From Candidatus Omnitrophota bacterium (GTDB lineage: Bacteria; Omnitrophota; Gorgyraeia; JABMRG01; JAFGKX01), in contig JAFGKX010000138.1 of the NCBI GenBank assembly GCA_016928375.1, positions 1-26,339 on the forward strand: DNA of 26,339 nucleotides, written 5' to 3'. The notes under the pieces were generated by a model that was not told the DNA's origin, did not search any database, and saw only the letters and a list, made by a program, of their open reading frames with translations. The translations under genes and the position numbers were made by a program. Below are positions 1 to 8,650 of the stretch, in pieces; the first letter of the stretch is position 1; every line of letters starts with the position of its first letter.

Positions 1-2
1 AG

Positions 3-1493
3 GCAACAAAGGATGCAGGAGAAATCGCCGGATTAAAAGTGCTGCGCATAATAAATGAGCCTACTGCCGCGTGCCTTGCGTACGGCCTGGAAAAATCCCA
101 GAAGGAACAAAAAATAATGGTTTTTGATTTGGGCGGCGGAACCCTGGATGTAACTATTATGGAAATGGCTCAGGGGGTATTCGAAGTAAAATCCACATCC
201 GGCGATACGCAATTGGGCGGCACAGATATGGATAATACCCTGATAGATTACATTGCAAATCAATTTAAGCGCGAGACAGGCGTTGACTTAAAAAACGATA
301 AAATGGCTATGCAGAGGCTGCGTGAAGCTGCGGAAAAAGCGAAAGTTGAACTGTCATCAACCCTGACAACGGATTTAAACCTGCCGTTTATTACCGCGGA
401 TTCTTCAGGCCCGAAACACCTGACCATGTCTTTGACGCGTGCAAAATTGGAAGACCTTATTTCGCCTATAATAGAAAAATGCCGCCACCCGATAGAGCAG
501 GCGCTCTCAGACGCAAAGCTCAAATCCTCGGATATAGACCGCGTTATTATGGTTGGCGGGCCGACGAGAATGCCGGTTGTCCAGAAATTCGTGGAAGATT
601 ATGTAGGAAAGAAAATTGAGCGCGGCGTAGACCCTATGGAATGCGTGGCAATGGGCGCAGCCATACAGGCCGCTATCATGAAAGGCGAAGCAAAGGATGT
701 TTTATTGCTTGATGTTACGCCGCTTTCACTCGGAATAGAAACACTCGGAAGCGTATTCACCAAATTAATAGAAAGAAATACCACTATACCTACTAAGAAA
801 AGCCAGATATTCTCAACAGCCGCGGATAACCAACCGGCAGTTACAGTACGCGTTCTGCAGGGTGAGAGGCAGATGGCCAATGATAATGTAGAGCTGGGAA
901 GGTTTGACCTGGTAGGCATACCGCCTGCGCCAAGAGGCATTCCGCAGATCGAAGTAAGTTTTGATATAGATGCCAACGGTATAGTGCACGTAACCGCAAA
1001 AGACTTAGGCACAGGCAAGGAGCAGTCCATACGCATAACAGCGCCTAAAAAACTTTCAAAAGAAGAAATAGAAAAAATGGTTAAAGAGGCTGAAAAATTT
1101 TCCGCTGAAGACACCAAGCGCAAGGAACAGGTCGAGATAGTAAATCAGGCAGATACCCTTGCTTACGCGACCGAGAAAGCGCTTAAAGAATACGGCGACA
1201 AAGTAAATCAATCGGAGCGCGCTGACATAGAAGCAAAGCTGAATGACTTAAAAAGCGCCATTAAAGATAACAACACCGACAGAGTCAAAAAATCTATGGA
1301 TGAGCTGACGAAAGCGTCGCATAAACTCGCGGAAGAAGTCTATAAGCAGGCGCAGGCAAAACAGCAGGGCCAGCAGGCACAAAGCGCGCCGGGGCAGGAG
1401 CAGGCTTCGGAAAATAAAAGCCAGAACACAGAAAAGCAAAAAGACAAAGATGACATTATCGACGCTGATTATAAAGTAGAAGATGATAAGTAA
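3..1493 (+). CDS. dnaK: Chaperone DnaK (Hsp70), 5'-truncated by the window edge
   Basis: The frame is open from base 3 ([23 protein letters not shown]), so the track's start at 39 is an internal GTG. Hsp70 motifs: [22 protein letters not shown]-equivalent [42 protein letters not shown]. Acidic tail [10 protein letters not shown]. Confidence 0.99.
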
Positions 1494-1505
1494 CCAATAA
1501 TTTTG

Positions 1506-1607
1506 TGCTGAGGGGCAGCATCGTTCATCAAGCGGGTGGAGCGCCCCACCGCCCGCAACGTTAGTGAGGACGGTGGGGCTGTTCAAAGACAGGGCCCGCA
1601 AGTGAAC
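1506..1607. repeat. Structured dnaK-dnaJ spacer with nested inverted repeats
   Basis: Perfect 9-bp stem GCCCCACCG (1543-1551) / CGGTGGGGC (1571-1579). It is enclosed by GCGGG (1532-1536) / CCCGC (1595-1599) and GTTCA (1523-1527) / TGAAC (1603-1607). A separate small hairpin TGCTG-agggg-CAGCA lies at 1506-1520. Confidence 0.7.
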
Positions 1608-1637
1608 CAGAAAAACCCCAAGGTCGGTATAAACATT

Positions 1638-2801
1638 ATGTCAACTAAACGTGATTACTACGAAATATTAGGCGTTAAAAAAAACGCCAGCCTTGATGAA
1701 ATAAAAAAGGCTTATCGCCAGCTTGCCATGCAGTATCATCCGGACAGGGTGCCGCAGGAGCAGAAAAAAGCTGCGGAGGAAAAATTCAAAGAAATTTCCG
1801 AGGCGTACGCTGTTTTATCCGATGCGCAGAAAAGAGCCCTCTATGACCAGTATGGGCACTCCGGAATAGACCAGAAATACGCATATGAGGATATATTCAA
1901 GGGCGCTGATTTTAACAGCGCTTTTGAAGGCATGGGCGATTTTGGATTCGGCGGAAGCTTGTTTGAGGATATTTTTAGCGATCTCGGTTTTGATATATTC
2001 GGTACGCGGACGCGTTCGCGTTCAAGAACCAAAAGGGGCAGCGATTTACAGGTTGCAGTCGATATTACCCTGGAAGAAGCTGCTGCGGGCGTGGAAAAAA
2101 CAATCACGCTACCGCGTTATGAACCGTGCTCCGTATGTTCTGGGAGCGGCGCGAAACCTGGTACAAAAAAACTCAGCTGTCCGCAATGCAGGGGTTCCGG
2201 GCGCGTTGTAATATCAAGCGGTTTTTTTCAGATGGCTCAGACCTGTCCGAAATGCCGCGGAGAAGGCGCTGTAATACAAACTCCATGCACCCAATGCCGC
2301 GGAGAAGGCAGGGTGAAAGTAACCAGAAAAATTAAAGTGCAAATTCCGCCGGGCGTTGATTCAGGCTCAAACTTAAGAGTGCACGGAGAAGGCGAGGCGG
2401 GAACCGCAGGCAGGGGCAATTTATATGTTGTTATCGAGGTTATGCCGCATTCGGTGTTCGAAAGGCATAATAATGATTTATTGACGCGCATAGAAATAAG
2501 CATAAGCAAGGCGATACTGGGAGCGGAAGTAGAAGTGCCTACGCTAGCTGATGGAAAAGTAATTATGAAAATACCTCCGGGCACGCAAAGTAACAGGATA
2601 TTCCGGTTAAAAAGCAAAGGTATGCCGGATCTGCATAGCAGAAGGGCCCTTGGCGATGAACTTGTCAGGGTGAATGTCAAGATTCCCGATAATTTAAGCA
2701 ACGAACAAAAGCGCTTAATAGAGGAATTCGCCAGGGTTTCGGGTGAGCAAATAAATTCAAAATCAGGTTTTGCGGATAAAATAAAAAAAGCATTTAAATA
2801 A
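1638..2801 (+). CDS. dnaJ: Chaperone DnaJ (class A), 387 aa
   Basis: J-domain starting [13 protein letters not shown] with HPD motif, G/F-rich linker, four CxxCxGxG repeats and C-terminal substrate-binding domains. Start moved from 1536 to ATG 1638 because the extra 34 codons merely translate the palindromic spacer. Confidence 0.98.
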
Positions 2802-2811
2802 AAGTAGCAAT

Positions 2812-3108
2812 ATGCCGACATACGAATACAGATGCGATAAATGCAAAAAAACATTCGAGGTTTTCCAAAGCATAAAAGCAAAACCCATAAATAAATGCCC
2901 TGCCTGCTCTTCGCCGGTTAGAAAGCTTATCAGCGCGGGAGGCGGTATTTTATTCAAAGGTTCAGGTTTTTATACAACAGATTATCGAAGCAAACAATAT
3001 AAGGAAAAGCAAAGCAAGGAAAAATCCGGCAGTATAACCTGTCCAAAAACAGGCCTGCCTGCCGATAGGCATGGAAAATCCGCGGATTGCTCATCATGCA
3101 AAGGATAA
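2812..3108 (+). CDS. FmdB-family zinc-ribbon protein (putative regulator) with Cys-containing C-terminal tail
   Basis: MPTYEYRCxxC...CPAC zinc ribbon followed by the family-typical FKGSGFYTTDY segment. Confidence 0.9.
   Translation: MPTYEYRCDKCKKTFEVFQSIKAKPINKCPACSSPVRKLISAGGGILFKGSGFYTTDYRSKQYKEKQSKEKSGSITCPKTGLPADRHGKSADCSSCKG
3054..3074. repeat. 21-nt palindromic element, in-frame within the FmdB-family gene
   Basis: CCTGCCTGCCGATAGGCATGG. The first 11 nt are identical to the intergenic copy at 6014-6034. Both derive from the perfect palindrome CCTGCCTGCCGGCAGGCAGG. Confidence 0.75.
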
Positions 3109-3111
3109 AAA

Positions 3112-4395
3112 ATGGCAAAAATAGCACCTTTTAGCGGAGTAAGATTTAATACCAAAATAACAGGCAGTTTAGCGAAAATAGTGTGCCCGCCTTATGATAT
3201 TATCAATAAGCAGCAAAGAACCGCATTCATGAAGCAATCTAAGTATAATGCGGTTTATATAGAACTCCCGCAGGGAACAAATAACCACGAAAGGCACAGA
3301 AGGGCAAAACAGCTGATTGACAAGTGGCTTGATGATAACATTTTAAATTGGGACGAAAAACCGTCTTTATATATTTATACGCAGGAATTTAAAATAGGCA
3401 AGGCCCTGAAGAAAAGGCTTGGGTTTATTTCTTTGCTTGAAATAGAAAGCGATAAAAAAATACTGCCGCATGAAAAGATATTTAATAAATTCAAATTCGA
3501 AAGATTCAATCTTATGAAAGAAACCAAAGCCCACATAAGCCCGATATTCTGTATATTTGATGATAACGGCAAAAAAGCAGAGAGCGCTATTTTAAAAGCG
3601 CTTAGCAGTAAAAAGCCGGTATCGGATATCTGCGTAGACGGAATAAGGGAAAAGCTATGGAAAATAGATGACGTAAAATTTATAAATAATCTTAAAAATA
3701 TTATGAACAATAAAAAAGCCTTTATTGCCGACGGGCACCACCGCTTTCAGGCATCCGCGCGTTTAAGGGATTACATGAAACAGAAGTGCGGCCCTTTAAG
3801 CAAAAAACAGCCATACGATTACACTCTTTGTTATTTCGTTAGTATGCAGGATAAGGGCCTTGTTGTGCTGCCCACTCACAGGGCTGTAAAAAATATTCCT
3901 TCCGGGATTACAAAATCTGTGCTTGTAAAAAAAATGTCGCAGTATTTTAACGTTTTCATAGCGCGTAGTAAAGATGAATTAGTAAGCAAAATGGAAACAA
4001 CGTTTAAAGCCAGGCGGCATGCGTTTGGATTCTTTTTCGAAAACAGGTATATATTGGCAGTGCTCAAAAATGAAAGCATCATAAAAAATATAGGCGCAGA
4101 TGAAAATTGCCTTGCCTGGAAAAAACTCGATGTTTCGATACTCCATTATTTTATACTCCCAAAAATCCTTAAAATAAAAGAAAAATTTAAAGGCAGCCGC
4201 AATATCTATTACTATAAAGGCAAGACCGAAGCTATAAAGAGAGTGAAGGCAAAAGAGTTTAAAATGGCGATATTTCTTAACCCTACCAGAATAGAAGAAG
4301 TGTCGCAGGTAGCTAAAGCCGGCAATAAAATGCCTCATAAATCCACCTATTTCTATCCCAAATCCACCACAGGCCTTGTGATACATAAGTTCTAG
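3112..4395 (+). CDS. DUF1015 family protein (ParB/Srx-like nucleotide-binding motif)
   Basis: N-terminal APFxGVRF...CPPYDII, ILPHEK, FIADGHHR motif and C-terminal MPHKSTYFYPK are characteristic of DUF1015. Confidence 0.88.
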   Translation: MAKIAPFSGVRFNTKITGSLAKIVCPPYDIINKQQRTAFMKQSKYNAVYIELPQGTNNHERHRRAKQLIDKWLDDNILNWDEKPSLYIYTQEFKIGKALKKRLGFISLLEIESDKKILPHEKIFNKFKFERFNLMKETKAHISPIFCIFDDNGKKAESAILKALSSKKPVSDICVDGIREKLWKIDDVKFINNLKNIMNNKKAFIADGHHRFQASARLRDYMKQKCGPLSKKQPYDYTLCYFVSMQDKGLVVLPTHRAVKNIPSGITKSVLVKKMSQYFNVFIARSKDELVSKMETTFKARRHAFGFFFENRYILAVLKNESIIKNIGADENCLAWKKLDVSILHYFILPKILKIKEKFKGSRNIYYYKGKTEAIKRVKAKEFKMAIFLNPTRIEEVSQVAKAGNKMPHKSTYFYPKSTTGLVIHKF

Positions 4396-4400
4396 CTGTC

Positions 4401-4442
4401 GGCAGGAATTCCGTTCTTTTTTCTCTTGATTATATTCCTGCC
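4401..4442. repeat. 9-bp perfect inverted repeat with 24-nt spacer (possible terminator or operator)
   Basis: GGCAGGAAT (4401-4409) / ATTCCTGCC (4434-4442), followed by TTTATGTT. It starts 6 nt after the DUF1015 stop codon. Confidence 0.6.
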
Positions 4443-4455
4443 TTTATGTTATTAT
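4426..4455 (+). promoter_or_regulatory. Putative sigma70 promoter with extended -10
   Basis: TTGATT (4426-4431), an 18-nt spacer, then TG-n-TATTAT (TG 4447-4448, hexamer 4450-4455), 25 nt upstream of ATG 4481. A second TATAAT lies at 4471-4476. Confidence 0.55.
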
Positions 4456-4480
4456 ATGCCTTACACTAAATATAATATAT

Positions 4481-5122
4481 ATGATTGAAGCCGTTTATGA
4501 TAATATAAAGAAGGCAATATTTGCCGGAAACATTCCTGAAATTCCCACCCTGGTACGCCAGGCCTTATCAGATAAAGCTTCACCGGAAGACATATTAAAT
4601 AAAGGCCTTATTGCGGGTATGGCAGTTGTGGGTGAGAAGTTCAAGGCCAATGAGATATATGTCCCGGAAGTGCTTATTTCCGCAAAGGCTATGCACGCCG
4701 GCCTGGATGTATTAAAGCCATTTCTGGAAAAAGCCGGAGTTGCCTCAAAAGGAAACATTGTAATAGGTACTGTCAAGGGAGACCTGCACGATATAGGGAA
4801 AAACCTTGTATCTATGATGTTTAAAGGCGCGGGTTTTTCTGTAACAGACTTGGGTATAGATGTTCCGCCTGAAAAGTTTATAGATGAAGCTGTCAGGAGC
4901 AAAGCGCAGGTCATGGCGATGTCAAGCCTTCTTACCACTTCCATGCCTTCCATGAAAGCGACAATGGACCTGCTGAAAAAAAGAGGCCTTGTTGGTAAAA
5001 TAAAAACAATAATCGGCGGCGCTCCGGTAACACAGAAATACGCCGATGAAATACAAGCAGACGGATATGCGGACAACGCTTCCTCTGCCGTAGATAAAGC
5101 AAAGGAGTTGTTGGGATTGTAA
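4481..5122 (+). CDS. Stand-alone cobalamin-binding corrinoid protein (MtaC/MttC/MetH B12 module type)
   Basis: Four-helix cap domain (LIAGMAVVGEKF...YVPEVL). Base-off/His-on motif GDLHDIGKN (DxHxxG), followed by SSLLTT and IIGGAPV. Confidence 0.93.
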   Translation: MIEAVYDNIKKAIFAGNIPEIPTLVRQALSDKASPEDILNKGLIAGMAVVGEKFKANEIYVPEVLISAKAMHAGLDVLKPFLEKAGVASKGNIVIGTVKGDLHDIGKNLVSMMFKGAGFSVTDLGIDVPPEKFIDEAVRSKAQVMAMSSLLTTSMPSMKATMDLLKKRGLVGKIKTIIGGAPVTQKYADEIQADGYADNASSAVDKAKELLGL

Positions 5123-5979
5123 TGGCTATATTCGGAAAACCTAAATACACGATAGTAAAGCCTAAAAAATTCAAGCAGCAGAGGAAAAAAGATATACCGG
5201 ACGGCCTATGGACAAAGTGCGAAGACTGCGGCGAAATAATCTACAATAAAACTCTTGAAGAAAATCTCAAAGTCTGCCCTAAGTGCAATTACCATTTTAT
5301 AATAAACGCCTATGACCGCGTAGCCATGCTTACGGATAAAGGCACTTTCAATGAACTGGACAAGGATATGTCTTCAGGCGATCCGCTTGAATTTGCAGGG
5401 CCTAAGACTTATAAAGAAAAGATAAAACAAGACCAGGAAATAACCGGTATGAAAGAAGCCGCGATATACGGCACAGGGGAAATAGACGGTAAAAAAATAG
5501 TTTTGGTAGTGACTGATTCCAGGTTTATCATGGGTTCTATGGGTTCGGTAGTAGGCGAGAAAATAACCAGGGCTATTGAACTGGCCACAGAAAAGAAAAT
5601 ACCGGTTATCATCGTATCCGGCTCCGGCGGCGGCGCCCGTATGTATGAGGGCATATTTTCCCTTATGCAGATGGCCAAAACTTCTGCCGCACTGTCAAAA
5701 TTAAATAAAAGCGGCAATATGTTCATATCCGTGCTTACGCATCCTACAATGGCAGGTATTCTGGCAAGTTTCGCGTCCTTAGGCGATATCATTATGGCAG
5801 AGCCTAAGGCGCTAATAGGTTTTACAGGGCCGAGGGTAATAGAGCAGACCATAAAGCAGAAACTGCCTGAAGGGTTTCAGCGTTCGGAATTTTTGCTTGA
5901 ACACGGTTTAATAGATATGATTGTTCCTAGGATTCACATGAAAGAAACAATATCCAAACTTATCGGATATTTAGCGTAG
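5122..5979 (+). CDS. accD: Acetyl-CoA carboxylase carboxyltransferase beta subunit
   Basis: GLWTKCxxC-x15-CPKC zinc finger, FIMGSMGSVVGEKI, SGGGARMYEG, IGFTGPRVIEQT, FQRSEFLLEHG. TAATG overlap with the upstream gene. Confidence 0.97.
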   Translation: MAIFGKPKYTIVKPKKFKQQRKKDIPDGLWTKCEDCGEIIYNKTLEENLKVCPKCNYHFIINAYDRVAMLTDKGTFNELDKDMSSGDPLEFAGPKTYKEKIKQDQEITGMKEAAIYGTGEIDGKKIVLVVTDSRFIMGSMGSVVGEKITRAIELATEKKIPVIIVSGSGGGARMYEGIFSLMQMAKTSAALSKLNKSGNMFISVLTHPTMAGILASFASLGDIIMAEPKALIGFTGPRVIEQTIKQKLPEGFQRSEFLLEHGLIDMIVPRIHMKETISKLIGYLA

Positions 5980-5980
5980 C

Positions 5981-6053
5981 CCCTCGCTAATAATAAGTCC
6001 TCGCACTTGCTCGCCTGCCTGCCGGCAAGGCAGGGACTTAAGTAATGCTCGGG
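5981..6053. repeat. Three-layer nested palindromic element
   Basis: Outer arms CCC-TC-GC (5981-5987) / GC-TC-GGG (6047-6053). Inner TAAGTCC-TC-GC-actt-GC-TC-G...GGACTTA (5994-6040). A 21-nt palindrome sits in the inner right arm. Confidence 0.7.
6014..6034. repeat. 21-nt near-perfect palindrome (CCTGCC family)
   Basis: CCTGCCTGCCGGCAAGGCAGG, which is the perfect 20-nt palindrome plus one extra A. Confidence 0.85.
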
Positions 6054-6054
6054 A

Positions 6055-6077
6055 CAAAATTTGTAAAACAAATTTTG
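6055..6077. promoter_or_regulatory. AT-rich perfect inverted repeat abutting the ribosome-binding site (operator-like)
   Basis: CAAAATTTGT-aaa-ACAAATTTTG. Its last base is the first G of the Shine-Dalgarno GGAGG (6077-6081) of the ABC ATPase gene. Confidence 0.5.
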
Positions 6078-6088
6078 GAGGCTTAAAA

Positions 6089-7192
6089 ATGGCACAGGTT
6101 AGCTTGCGTAACGTTAGCAAGATGTTTACGCCGAATTCATACGCGGTAAAAGATTTTAATCTCGGCATAGAAAACAAAGAATTTCTTGTCCTGGTAGGGC
6201 CTTCCGGATGCGGAAAATCCACGACGCTTAGGATGATAGCGGGGTTAGAAGAAATTTCTTCGGGAGAGATTTATATAGGCGACAGGTTAGTGAACGATAT
6301 TCCCCCAAAGGACAGAAACATTGCCATGGTATTCCAGAATTACGCGCTTTATCCGCATATGACTGTTTACGAGAATATGGCATTCGGGCTTAAATTAAGA
6401 AGATTGCCTAAACAGGAAATAGATCAGAGGGTAAGAGACGCTGCCGAGGTGCTTAGTATTACCAAGCACCTTAATAAGCGCCCGAAAGAACTCTCCGGAG
6501 GCGAAAGGCAAAGGGTCGCGGTTGGAAGAGCCATAGTCAGAAAGCCTCTGGTGTTTTTATTTGATGAGCCTTTAAGCAACCTGGATGCAAAAATGCGCGT
6601 TCAGATGAGAACAGAGATCAACAAGCTTCATATAAAACTTCAGACAACCATGATATACGTAACACACGACCAGGTAGAGGCCATGACCATGGGCACCAGG
6701 ATAGTTGTTATGAAGGACGGTATAATACAACAGATAGACGACCCGATAACTCTTTACGATAATCCCACCAACAAATTCGTAGCAGGATTTATAGGCTCTC
6801 CGCCGATGAATTTCATGAACGGGCTGCTGATAAAGAAAGACGGAAAATTCCATTTTAATGAAGGCAATTTTTCTGTCAGGGTAAACGATGATATGAGGGA
6901 TAGCCTTGCCCCGCATCTGGACAAAGAAGTTATTTTCGGAATAAGGCCCGAAGATATATATGACAGGTTGTTTGCCCAGGGCGCTTCCGAAGATAACGTA
7001 ATCACCTCCACCTGTGAAGTATATGAACCCATGGGCGCGGAGGTATTCTTACACCTTAACAGCGGTAAACACACGTTTATCGCGAGAGTAGGCGGCCACG
7101 ACAGGCCTGCTGTCAATCAGGACCTTGAGATGGTGCTCAACATGAGTAAAGCTCATTTCTTCAATGCTAAAACAGAAAAGGTAATCATATAA
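6089..7192 (+). CDS. Carbohydrate ABC importer ATP-binding subunit (MalK/UgpC/MsmX family)
   Basis: Walker A GPSGCGKST, VFQNYALYPHMTV, signature LSGGERQRVA, Walker B FLFDEPLSNLD, H-loop YVTHDQ, FVAGFIGSPPMNF and C-terminal TOBE region. SD GGAGG at 6077-6081. Confidence 0.96.
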   Translation: MAQVSLRNVSKMFTPNSYAVKDFNLGIENKEFLVLVGPSGCGKSTTLRMIAGLEEISSGEIYIGDRLVNDIPPKDRNIAMVFQNYALYPHMTVYENMAFGLKLRRLPKQEIDQRVRDAAEVLSITKHLNKRPKELSGGERQRVAVGRAIVRKPLVFLFDEPLSNLDAKMRVQMRTEINKLHIKLQTTMIYVTHDQVEAMTMGTRIVVMKDGIIQQIDDPITLYDNPTNKFVAGFIGSPPMNFMNGLLIKKDGKFHFNEGNFSVRVNDDMRDSLAPHLDKEVIFGIRPEDIYDRLFAQGASEDNVITSTCEVYEPMGAEVFLHLNSGKHTFIARVGGHDRPAVNQDLEMVLNMSKAHFFNAKTEKVII

Positions 7193-7251
7193 ATTTCCGC
7201 CGAAGGCGGATTCGCCTGCGGCGGAAAAAATTTAGCCTCCGGCGGAAATTT
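7191..7251. repeat. Cluster of three 15-nt palindromic units within 11-bp terminal inverted repeats; may act as terminator
   Basis: Units TCCGCC-gaa-GGCGGA (7196-7210), TTCGCC-tgc-GGCGGA (7211-7225) and TTAGCC-tcc-GGCGGA (7232-7246). Outer AAATTTCCGCC (7191-7201) / GGCGGAAATTT (7241-7251). T-rich run downstream. Confidence 0.8.
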
Positions 7252-7261
7252 TTAACTTTTT

Positions 7262-8650
7262 ATGTATCCTCAAAACTATAAGATTATACGTATTGCCGCA
7301 GCGATAATACTTTTTGTAATCGCCATTTTTATTTTAAAAATCGCCGTGCCTTATGCATTTATACTGATGACGCTCTCGCTGCTTATGATATGGCAGGGCG
7401 GTGGGCCTTTTGCGGGACTGGTGCTTTTTTTCATCAGCATTCCGTTGATTATTTTTGCATCCTATATTACAAAAAGCCATATATATAATTTCCAAATACT
7501 GATAATGCTTGCTGCAGCCGTGCCTTCCCATTTATTTTATAAAAAAGCAACAGCAGGGCTGCTTGATAAAAACAAAGAATCGGAAAATATTCAGGAACAG
7601 CACAATATTATAAGCAGTCAGACGGCTAAAGACAGAGAACTTACGCAGGCTTTGCTTAAGAAACTGGACAGGTATAATAAGCTCAAAGGCCTGGGCGAGG
7701 TCTTTAACACAAAGCTCTCGCTTAAAGATATATATAATATAATAACAGAAAAATCCTTTGAAATAATAGGCAAGGCAGATGAGGCGAAACTATTTATTGT
7801 ATCCGGCGATCGGCAGAATCTTGAGGTTTGTTCAACGAAAAATGGAAAAGAAGGCAATAGCCACGCATCTGATTCTTTTAACAAATGGGTGCTTAACAAA
7901 GCTCAGCCCCTGCTTATATCGGACGCAACCAGGGATTTTCGCTTTGATTACGAAGACACGCAGCCGCAACCCGGGTATCTTTCGATAATAATAGTGCCGA
8001 TGATGATACAGCAGCGAATAATAGGGCTTTTGCGTTTAGGCAGCAGGAAAAGAGCCGGATTCTGCGAAGAAGATTTAAGGCTTCTGGATTTTATATCCGA
8101 CCTGGCAAGCGCTGCAATAAATAATGCCCGGTTGTATATGCAGACCGAGGAGCTGGCTATAACCGACGGGCTTACGGGGCTGTATGTGCACCGTTATTTC
8201 AAGGAAAGATTATCCGAGGAATTTAACAGGTGCAGGAAAAACAGCCATATGCCGCTCTCTATCATTATGCTCGATATAGACCATTTTAAGGATTATAACG
8301 ATAAATACGGGCACGCTGCCGGAGATAAAGTGCTTAAAGGCATAAGCGAGGCATTGCGTAAGCATACTATGCCAAATAATATACTTGCCCGTTACGGAGG
8401 CGAGGAATTCGTCGTATTGTTTCCGGGTGAGCCCAAAGAAAATATAATACCGGTTGCCGAAGCAATCAGAAAAAAAATCCAATCAATGATGTTTGTGCTA
8501 AGGCGGCAGGAAACGAAAGTAACGGTTTCTGTCGGAGTAGCGGGTTTTCCGCAGGATGCCGCGTCTTCCGAAGAAGAACTGCTTAAAAGAGTGGATTTTC
8601 TGTTGTATAAAGCCAAAAAAGAAGGCCGTAATAAAATATGCGTCAGCTGA
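7262..8650 (+). CDS. Membrane-anchored GAF-GGDEF diguanylate cyclase (no RxxD I-site)
   Basis: Hydrophobic N-terminal helices, coiled linker, GAF-like region (IIVPMMIQQRIIGLL...DLRLL), AITDGLTG, MLDIDHFKDYNDKYGHAAGD, ARYGGEEF (GGEEF at 8396-8410). Confidence 0.93.
   Translation: MYPQNYKIIRIAAAIILFVIAIFILKIAVPYAFILMTLSLLMIWQGGGPFAGLVLFFISIPLIIFASYITKSHIYNFQILIMLAAAVPSHLFYKKATAGLLDKNKESENIQEQHNIISSQTAKDRELTQALLKKLDRYNKLKGLGEVFNTKLSLKDIYNIITEKSFEIIGKADEAKLFIVSGDRQNLEVCSTKNGKEGNSHASDSFNKWVLNKAQPLLISDATRDFRFDYEDTQPQPGYLSIIIVPMMIQQRIIGLLRLGSRKRAGFCEEDLRLLDFISDLASAAINNARLYMQTEELAITDGLTGLYVHRYFKERLSEEFNRCRKNSHMPLSIIMLDIDHFKDYNDKYGHAAGDKVLKGISEALRKHTMPNNILARYGGEEFVVLFPGEPKENIIPVAEAIRKKIQSMMFVLRRQETKVTVSVGVAGFPQDAASSEEELLKRVDFLLYKAKKEGRNKICVS

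Follow-up and report, generated by a model that had tools for sequence, protein, structure and literature searches.

Short palindromic repeats in bacterial genomes

Repetitive extragenic palindromic (REP) sequences, with their mosaic clusters (bacterial interspersed mosaic elements, BIMEs), their inverted doublets (REPINs) and REP-associated tyrosine transposases (RAYTs), are among the described systems that come closest to the repeats reported here (PMC3116915; PMC3733652). REP systems comprise short, GC-rich, extragenic palindromes in many copies, located mostly between co-directional genes and clustered at gene ends, with several families per genome. REPs of a CGTC-tagged superfamily "apparently lack a dedicated transposase", and REPs inside larger palindromes and inside open reading frames (ORFs) have been reported (PMC3733652). 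Rickettsia palindromic elements (RPEs) are inserted in frame in conserved genes, and transcribed miniature inverted-repeat transposable elements (MITEs) such as Correia/NEMIS, ERIC, RUP and BOX, of about 70–130 nt, are found beside coding sequences (PMC3733652). In this study we analysed contig JAFGKX010000138.1 (26,339 nt, hereafter the window) of the Candidatus Omnitrophota assembly GCA_016928375.1, in which hairpin-forming elements that we term S, B, P and D lie between and within the genes from dnaK to that of an ABC ATPase.

The window is the complete contig C40 of a metagenome-assembled genome (MAG) of Candidatus Omnitrophota (1.24 Mb in 161 contigs, 41.6% GC, completeness 90%, contamination 2.9%). 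The nearest named relatives of its AccD are other Candidatus Omnitrophota MAGs, and the relatives of the MAG in GTDB are at the family level at closest, with AccD identities of 79–81%. This region carries S, B, a copy of P nested in B, a cluster of D and a degenerate P, and the data show that at least four families have been inserted, nested in one another and copied again. We consider it probable that the region holds five separate, recent and lineage-specific insertions of non-coding, hairpin-forming dispersed repeats, REP/BIME-like in general and RPE-like where they lie in genes, and we infer that they spread in trans. P, D and B belong to a pool of mosaic, nestable hairpin modules common to Candidatus Omnitrophota; S is nearly confined to this genome.

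Insertions in the dnaK to ABC ATPase region

Element S (1501–1634, plus strand) fills the 144-nt spacer between dnaK and dnaJ. In three of three same-family genomes these two genes are only about 0–5 nt apart, hence the spacer is an insertion. Self-BLAST displays homology of S to six other loci over positions 1501–1634 or thereabouts, and covariance model R2, which scores the window copy at 142 bits, finds seven copies of this element of about 130 nt in the genome, as well as matches in 3 of the 150 other genomes of the class. S folds into a nested, rod-like palindrome (−59.7 kcal/mol, z −4.5). Its inner hairpin GCCCCACCG (1540–1582, plus strand; arms 1543–1557 and 1565–1579), which the original prediction had taken for a micro-element of its own, is an optional module of S that is missing from the copy on contig C144. 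The copies on C13 and C63 carry a further CCGCC-GTA-GGCGG hairpin in the loop of this module, which makes three levels of nesting; in all, two alternative loops occur in S. A riboswitch or a heat-shock element was considered for S and rejected, since the downstream ORFs are, on a provisional reading, unrelated (dnaJ and probably rarA, icd and mreD) and so few other genomes have it.

Element B, together with its nested P, occupies 5978–6085 (plus strand; alignment A1, its consensus fold and covariance model R1) in the spacer between accD and the ABC ATPase gene. B is absent from all 11 relatives with conserved synteny, in 7 of which this spacer measures about 15–30 nt. The 87-nt core of B has three parts, namely a long hairpin that is interrupted and capped by a conserved 13-nt loop, a small hairpin, and GGAGG, a Shine-Dalgarno (SD) motif. 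In the window the arms of the small hairpin lie at 6055–6064 and 6068–6077, and GGAGG lies at 6077–6081, 7 nt upstream of the ATG at 6089. Arms of a 'CC-TC-GC' type, predicted as yet another micro-element, turned out to be the basal stem of B, of which the genome holds 17 copies by BLAST and 27 by model R1. The SD of B is followed by an ORF-opening ATG 6–10 nt downstream in 22 of the 27 copies; among the other five, two have P between B and the SD, two have another insert, and one precedes a tRNA gene. All copies examined (17/17) are located between co-directional genes and point with the downstream gene, and in 10 of these 17 the upstream stop codon overlaps the first base of B or lies at most 11 nt from it.

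A 21-nt variant of palindrome P, with one extra A, is nested at the 3′ edge of the apical loop of B (6014–6034). P itself is a 20-nt perfect palindrome (CCTGCCTGCCGGCAGGCAGG) which, with its close variants, has about 33 copies in the genome. About 20 of these are nested in other repeats: the host sequences are arms of a family A (see below), the loop of B, the stretch that separates B from its SD, a D doublet, where P lies between the two hairpins, and a duplicated fragment of tRNA-Arg, where it lies in the D-loop. P is missing at the window's loop position in 9 of the 17 aligned copies of B. The 21-nt variant is present in five copies, all of one B subfamily, the 20-nt form in two copies of another subfamily, and two more copies have P at a different position. 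These variants and positions point to at least three insertions of P with subsequent spread of the composite, and the composite of B and P was copied to five loci after P had entered. The same loop position also takes a D-like hairpin instead of P. Since the B copies of other genomes of the class are without P, the P-less form is the ancestral state, and secondary deletion is unlikely to account for the P-less copies in this genome. The nesting noted in the original prediction is real for the palindrome at 6014–6034, as the larger element exists elsewhere in the genome without it.

Coding sequence is affected as well. A degenerate 21-nt P (3054–3074, equally 3052–3072; plus strand), which shares a 12-mer and AGGCA with P, lies in frame in a gene for an FmdB-like zinc-ribbon protein, where it adds the residues GLPADRH. 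None of 13 FmdB orthologs has these residues (missing in 13/13), in agreement with the in-frame insertion proposed from the sequence of the window.

The D cluster (7194–7251; component 2 of the self-BLAST repeats, with a doublet pattern match at 7197–7224) begins 2 nt past the stop codon of the ABC ATPase gene. It consists of hairpin units at 7194–7210, 7211–7227 and 7234–7251, the first two of which form the D doublet, a near-perfect 28-nt palindrome of two hairpins. The family has 14 repeat regions in the genome, 8 of them strict doublet matches. D is absent from the corresponding spacers of the relatives G001–G003 (3/3), where other, unrelated palindromes are found, one of them a different doublet; in G001, the doublet pattern was not found. 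Further D doublets lie in frame in carB (C46:13024–13051), adding SARGGSAYGG, and in leuS (C109:6591–6618), adding about 10 residues, SAVGGSAFGG. None of the 9 carB homologues compared has the carB insertion. Of nine leuS orthologs, five have no insertion at this site, and the four others, of another genus, have different insertions of their own. The original prediction had implied presence/absence differences among close relatives; at all five sites of the window, S, B, P and D are missing in every orthologous locus examined.

The corresponding intergenic slots of relatives are taken by unrelated palindromes of their own or by short words in tandem (loci L006, between the ABC ATPase gene and the next gene, and L007 and L014, between accD and the ABC ATPase gene). 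A ATGGTGCCWGGCACCAT doublet occupies the former spacer in G001 (L006). It seems that these slots have repeatedly taken up members of different families.

Partial 5′ duplicates of tRNA-Val (C49:1–147) and tRNA-Arg (C121:8877–9278) stand beside the intact genes. The tRNA-Val duplicate has a D doublet in its D-loop and the tRNA-Arg duplicate has P in the same place; beyond the latter lies a small ORF that is GIY-YIG nuclease-like by eye only.

Distribution of the repeats in the genome and the phylum

Based on k-mer counts and self-BLAST, the genome contains 370 repeat regions. Short repeats with at least three copies amount to about 15 kb and are carried by 68 of the 254 spacers of at least 60 nt. 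The 6% of the genome that lies outside ORFs holds 64% of the short-repeat bases, a figure that is approximate, as the genome-wide gene calls are greedy ORFs. The copies sit at unlinked loci. The 10-mer CCTGCCTGCC occurs 65 times, against about one occurrence expected from base composition, and P matches 17 times per strand, against none for the reversed control. A genome-wide population of REP-like hairpin repeats had been predicted together with a test for over-representation, and these counts support both.

Exactly four spacers between 1543 and 7251 exceed 60 nt (1494–1637, 4396–4480, 5980–6088 and 7193–7261, hereafter spacers 1–4). As predicted, all four (4/4) hold inverted repeats, and their folds surpass those of dinucleotide shuffles (z = −4.5, −3.6, −3.2 and −3.7, with 0–1 of 200 shuffles equally good). 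The predicted lack of such clusters downstream is confirmed likewise: after 7.3 kb the window is free of short multi-copy repeats, and none of its spacers exceeds 25 nt. Members of genome-wide families were found in three of the four long spacers and at one coding site, and the only parts of the window with at least three genome copies by self-BLAST are 1566–1623, 5977–6087 and 7195–7228. Modules were found in loops predicted to be single-stranded, at stop-codon and SD junctions, within genes, where they are in frame, and in tRNA fragments, where they occupy the D-loop; that the elements lie in hairpins and at gene ends was a correct claim. Several families are located at contig ends. The original prediction had further proposed at least four unrelated families of 15–37 nt each, smaller than typical MITEs. 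Several unrelated families do coexist, but the inverted repeat of spacer 2 belongs to none of them, only P (20–21 nt) and the D doublet (~34 nt) fit the size range, and two of the supposed micro-elements are parts of the MITE-sized structured units S and B.

The modules are widespread beyond this genome. Of the 301 Omnitrophota genomes sampled, 124 contain P at no more than one mismatch, with a maximum of 53 occurrences in a genome (reversed control 0), and P was also found in 35 IMG/VR stretches. A Kuenenia MAG (G372, behind L029; Planctomycetota) has 19 occurrences of a variant of P with a T.G wobble on one strand. The D doublet pattern is present in 65 of the 301 genomes with up to 125 matches (reversed-pattern control 0 or near 0). 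Among 151 genomes of the class, 25 have B-like elements of the same architecture in multiple copies; in G001, which is of the same family, B takes mainly the form of a 69-nt variant. Family A, which lies outside the window, starts with CGTC, continues with an AT-initiated stem and has fixed boxes around hypervariable hairpins. It is found in 140 of the 301 genomes (controls 0 or near 0), and its dimers form larger hairpins like the D doublet. A Thermodesulfovibrio MAG (G371, behind L021; Nitrospirota) contains 200 family-A arms (GTCATTGCGAG ... GAAGCAATC).

Additional families occur outside the window, i.e. family C with three CCCGCACCTTTT units, families E and F of 90–130 nt at contig ends, and family Q (about 12 copies), whose members measure about 90 nt and contain a nested TTCGCC-GAA-GGCGAA hairpin.

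Possible mode of spread

We hypothesize that the elements are non-autonomous and that an enzyme acts on them in trans. Single-stranded hairpin intermediates would be copied and pasted into loops that are exposed and between neighbouring genes. The preference of the modules for gene junctions, tRNA D-loops and other loops predicted to be single-stranded fits such single-strand hairpin chemistry. A RAYT-like Y1/HUH nuclease would be the obvious, albeit unlinked, candidate enzyme. Following insertion, the elements may be co-transcribed with their neighbours; B, which extends from near the upstream stop codon to the SD, would be at least tolerated there and probably acts as an intercistronic 5′ leader.

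The genome encodes three Y1_Tnp ORFs (C57:3490–4056, C99:4502–4984 and C76:112–810). All three score higher against the NCBIfam model 'REP-associated tyrosine transposase' than against IS200 TnpA, one of them above the curated cut-off. The gene on C57 has CTAACCWGGTTAG palindromes at its flanks, which make up a separate small REP family with 7 intergenic copies genome-wide; the gene on C99 is flanked by a 35-nt inverted repeat (TIRYT-like), and the gene on C76 lies beside family F at a contig end. The expectation that a RAYT or TnpA gene would be flanked by the same palindromes as those of the window did not hold: RAYT-like genes are present, but other repeats flank them. Y1 genes are found in 240 of the 301 genomes of the phylum. 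P occurs in 3 of 20 listed genomes without Y1, compared with 41% overall, as judged by eye only.

Several results weigh against recent, enzyme-driven insertion. None of S, B, P and D lies next to the three RAYT-like genes, a linkage that in a fragmented assembly is not fully excludable, and P was found within 1.5 kb of Y1 genes at none of 34 loci from ten other genomes, five of them rich in P. P as a RAYT-flanking REP was rejected across these 37 Y1 loci. Despite its 200 family-A arms, G371, a MAG of unknown completeness, gave no match to Y1_Tnp. No target-site duplication shows up when B and S are aligned together with their flanking sequences. Two of ten B sites are shared at orthologous genes of two genera, each with the variant of its own genome, hence not all copies of B are recent. 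The exact conservation of modules of 20–28 nt across the phylum and the strict orientation of B also fit a function at the level of RNA or DNA. Finally, the region is known from its source sample only, and no strain-level polymorphism or transposition intermediate was observable there.

In read sets, too, the region was found in the source sample only, as assembled Logan contigs that provide neither alleles nor RNA evidence. One of these contigs ends at 6010, just before the nested P (6014), as a repeat would lead one to expect. The organism is missing from the RNA run of the same study, and a scan of metagenome contigs returned no near-identical strains, the best AccD identity being 71%. No insertion sequence (IS) with ends matching B or S was seen, though contigs break at repeats.

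Tentatively, one may go beyond insertion in trans and combine two ideas: B would be a mobile plug-in intercistronic cassette, and P, D and the arms of family A would spread into hairpin loops across phyla independently of RAYTs. If the first idea is true, B enters operons without polar damage and then acts as RNA leader, which would make it a new class of translation-initiation module across a class of Omnitrophota. If the second is true, loop-targeting spread in Omnitrophota, Nitrospirota and Planctomycetota explains near-identical palindromes of 20–28 nt over large distances.

Function of the repeats and other explanations

The structure of B is relevant to its possible function. Its consensus fold has 22 pairs, 10 of which show compensatory double changes, and the sense strand has 16 G.U pairs versus 7 A.C mismatches, an excess that is suggestive of RNA-level selection, though not decisive. 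The second small hairpin often has a TTCG loop (UUCG-type in RNA). Among the genes downstream of B are presumably, as read from their N-termini, rplL, glnA, argG, fba, gcvH, ribH, an HU-like hup, amt and htpX.

This data may suggest that the elements are functional RNA modules under selection, such as leaders, mRNA stabilisers or processing sites, or signals for translation coupling or termination. B would then be a cis-acting 5′ leader for the translation or stability of the downstream gene, as its constant sense orientation and fixed distance to the ATG would have it, and D hairpins behind a stop codon would act on the 3′ end of the cistron that precedes them. The architecture of B is kept across the class, with two orthologous genes retaining it in two genera, and the position of D just past a stop codon is comparable to that of E. 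coli REPs, which have been linked to translational control where they lie at most 15 nt from a stop codon (PMC12306157). However, the genes behind B have no common pathway, and most orthologous sites are without the element. The same modules also occur in coding regions, in tRNA fragments and in each other, a pattern for which function alone would hardly account. Rfam offers no match and the RNA run no reads of this organism: the Rfam 15 covariance models gave none for positions 1–8000 of the window at E values up to 1, and for twenty repeat copies they gave chance-level hairpin matches and one neighbouring tRNA only. Selection for function, above all in B, appears a live though rather improbable explanation in place of mobility. 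Function and mobility are nevertheless compatible and not mutually exclusive.

Somewhat less probable still is a spread that involves no dedicated enzyme, i.e. template switching during replication or ectopic gene conversion between hairpins (quasi-palindrome correction). Such a process would be consistent with the lack of transposase linkage and of target-site duplications. It would also suit the swapping of modules at one loop position, as seen for P or a D-like hairpin in B and for the two alternative loops of S, as well as the arms of family A with their fixed boxes around hypervariable hairpins. Moreover, the two orthologous B sites in two genera carry the variants of their own genomes, as concerted evolution predicts. 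On the other hand, this explanation gives a poor account of the first arrival of an element where no hairpin existed before (the 0–5-nt spacer of dnaK and dnaJ, and the coding sequences of FmdB, carB and leuS), and it leaves identical 20-nt modules in distant classes and their patchy phyletic distribution unexplained.

Intrinsic terminators of the ordinary kind, inverted repeats that arose by chance or assembly artefacts in a fragmented MAG would be in keeping with the unique repeat of spacer 2, which lies by a T-run and a promoter, and with 161 contigs that have several repeat families at their ends, but they are largely refuted for S, B, P and D and hold only for that one repeat, as the same sequences recur in more than 100 independently assembled genomes, reversed-pattern controls are zero, folds exceed shuffles and the long spacers yield a single, weak terminator-like call on the minus strand (7210–7196), so that we regard this explanation as very improbable overall. 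A simple terminator scan called no plus-strand intrinsic terminator in spacers 1, 3 and 4.

Comparison with described elements and relevance

The insertion of dispersed repeats, which we prefer, has much in common with REP, BIME and REPIN systems. P with about 33 copies and the 14 regions of D are short multi-copy palindromes that are mainly extragenic; the D doublet, and likewise the dimers of family A, are inverted doublets forming a larger hairpin; and mosaic clusters at gene ends, co-directional neighbours, several families in one genome and RAYT-like genes are all found here. In contrast to REP heads, S, B, P and D have no GTAG or CGTC tag. Only family A has CGTC, and with its AT-initiated stem it resembles the CGTC-tagged superfamily (PMC3733652). 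No RAYT flanked by S, B, P or D was found. Many described REP families are limited to one or a few species, whereas P, D and A are near-identical across the phylum, with A and a variant of P reaching other phyla. Nesting to three levels and the strand specificity of B with its downstream SD are further differences.

In-frame palindromic insertions in conserved genes that are missing from orthologs (FmdB 13/13, carB 9/9, leuS 5/9) and that encode short peptide loops recall RPEs (PMC3733652). The insertions observed here are much shorter (21–30 nt), their modules are mostly intergenic and nested, and the sequences appear to be unrelated. B and S resemble transcribed MITEs (PMC3733652) in their size, their location beside coding sequences, their stable folding and their probable co-transcription. 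They seem to differ in that neither an IS partner nor a target-site duplication was found for them, nor any terminal inverted repeats that match a known IS, and B additionally keeps one orientation and a constant distance to the start codon. A different parallel comes from Nostoc. Small dispersed repeats (SDRs) of 21–27 nt, described by Elhai et al. in 2008, are said to be mobile-looking, smaller than MITEs, nested and located in hairpin contexts, with a mechanism reportedly unknown. By that description they belong to another phylum and have other sequences, and the small modules reported here are, unlike them, perfect palindromes.

In the literature searched, no paper links Omnitrophota with REP-type repeats, and the family-A box gave only chance occurrences in unrelated papers; the elements seem to be undescribed. 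Omnitrophota are abundant and uncultured bacteria with small, tightly packed genomes, yet about a quarter of the longer gaps in this genome are filled by nestable hairpin repeats, and some repeats lie inside essential genes. If they are mobile without a linked RAYT, they point to an unrecognised route by which DNA this small can move. A role of B as a working leader would, if true, mean that a phylum without genetics has a widespread post-transcriptional module. In practical terms, the repeats break MAG assemblies and create spurious N-terminal extensions and small 'hypothetical proteins', and they could serve as strain markers. Repeat-derived peptides that artificially lengthen ORF calls include LPAGRQA and IASSLALLAMT.

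Genes and further features of the window

All genes in positions 1–8000 lie on the plus strand, and their names are a reading of the ORF translations alone. These are dnaK (to 1493), dnaJ (1638–2801), the FmdB-like zinc-ribbon gene (2812–3108), a DUF1015-like gene (3112–4395), a gene for a B12-binding protein (4481–5122), accD (5122–5979), the ABC ATPase gene (6089–7192) and a next gene that begins at 7262.

Spacer 2, between the DUF1015-like gene and the B12-binding gene, contains a 9-bp inverted repeat with a 24-nt loop (4401–4442; arms 4401–4409 and 4434–4442) that belongs to no family. Self-BLAST found no second copy in the genome. Its 3′ arm lies within a promoter-like site (4426–4455, TTGATT-18-TATTAT); in G001 and G003, the B12-binding gene is preceded by a promoter with which this site aligns. 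Membership in a repeat family was rejected for this hairpin, which is unique in the genome and overlaps a conserved promoter; we treat it as local promoter and terminator sequence. The grouping of this hairpin with the palindrome at 6014–6034 as one 'CCTGCC type' is not supported either, the former being single-copy.

The corresponding spacers of G001 (L006:2985–3433) and G003 (L007:3019–3519) contain a conserved segment of about 330 nt that is missing from the window and has no Rfam match. With a promoter-like site and a terminator hairpin of its own, this segment may be an unknown small RNA gene.

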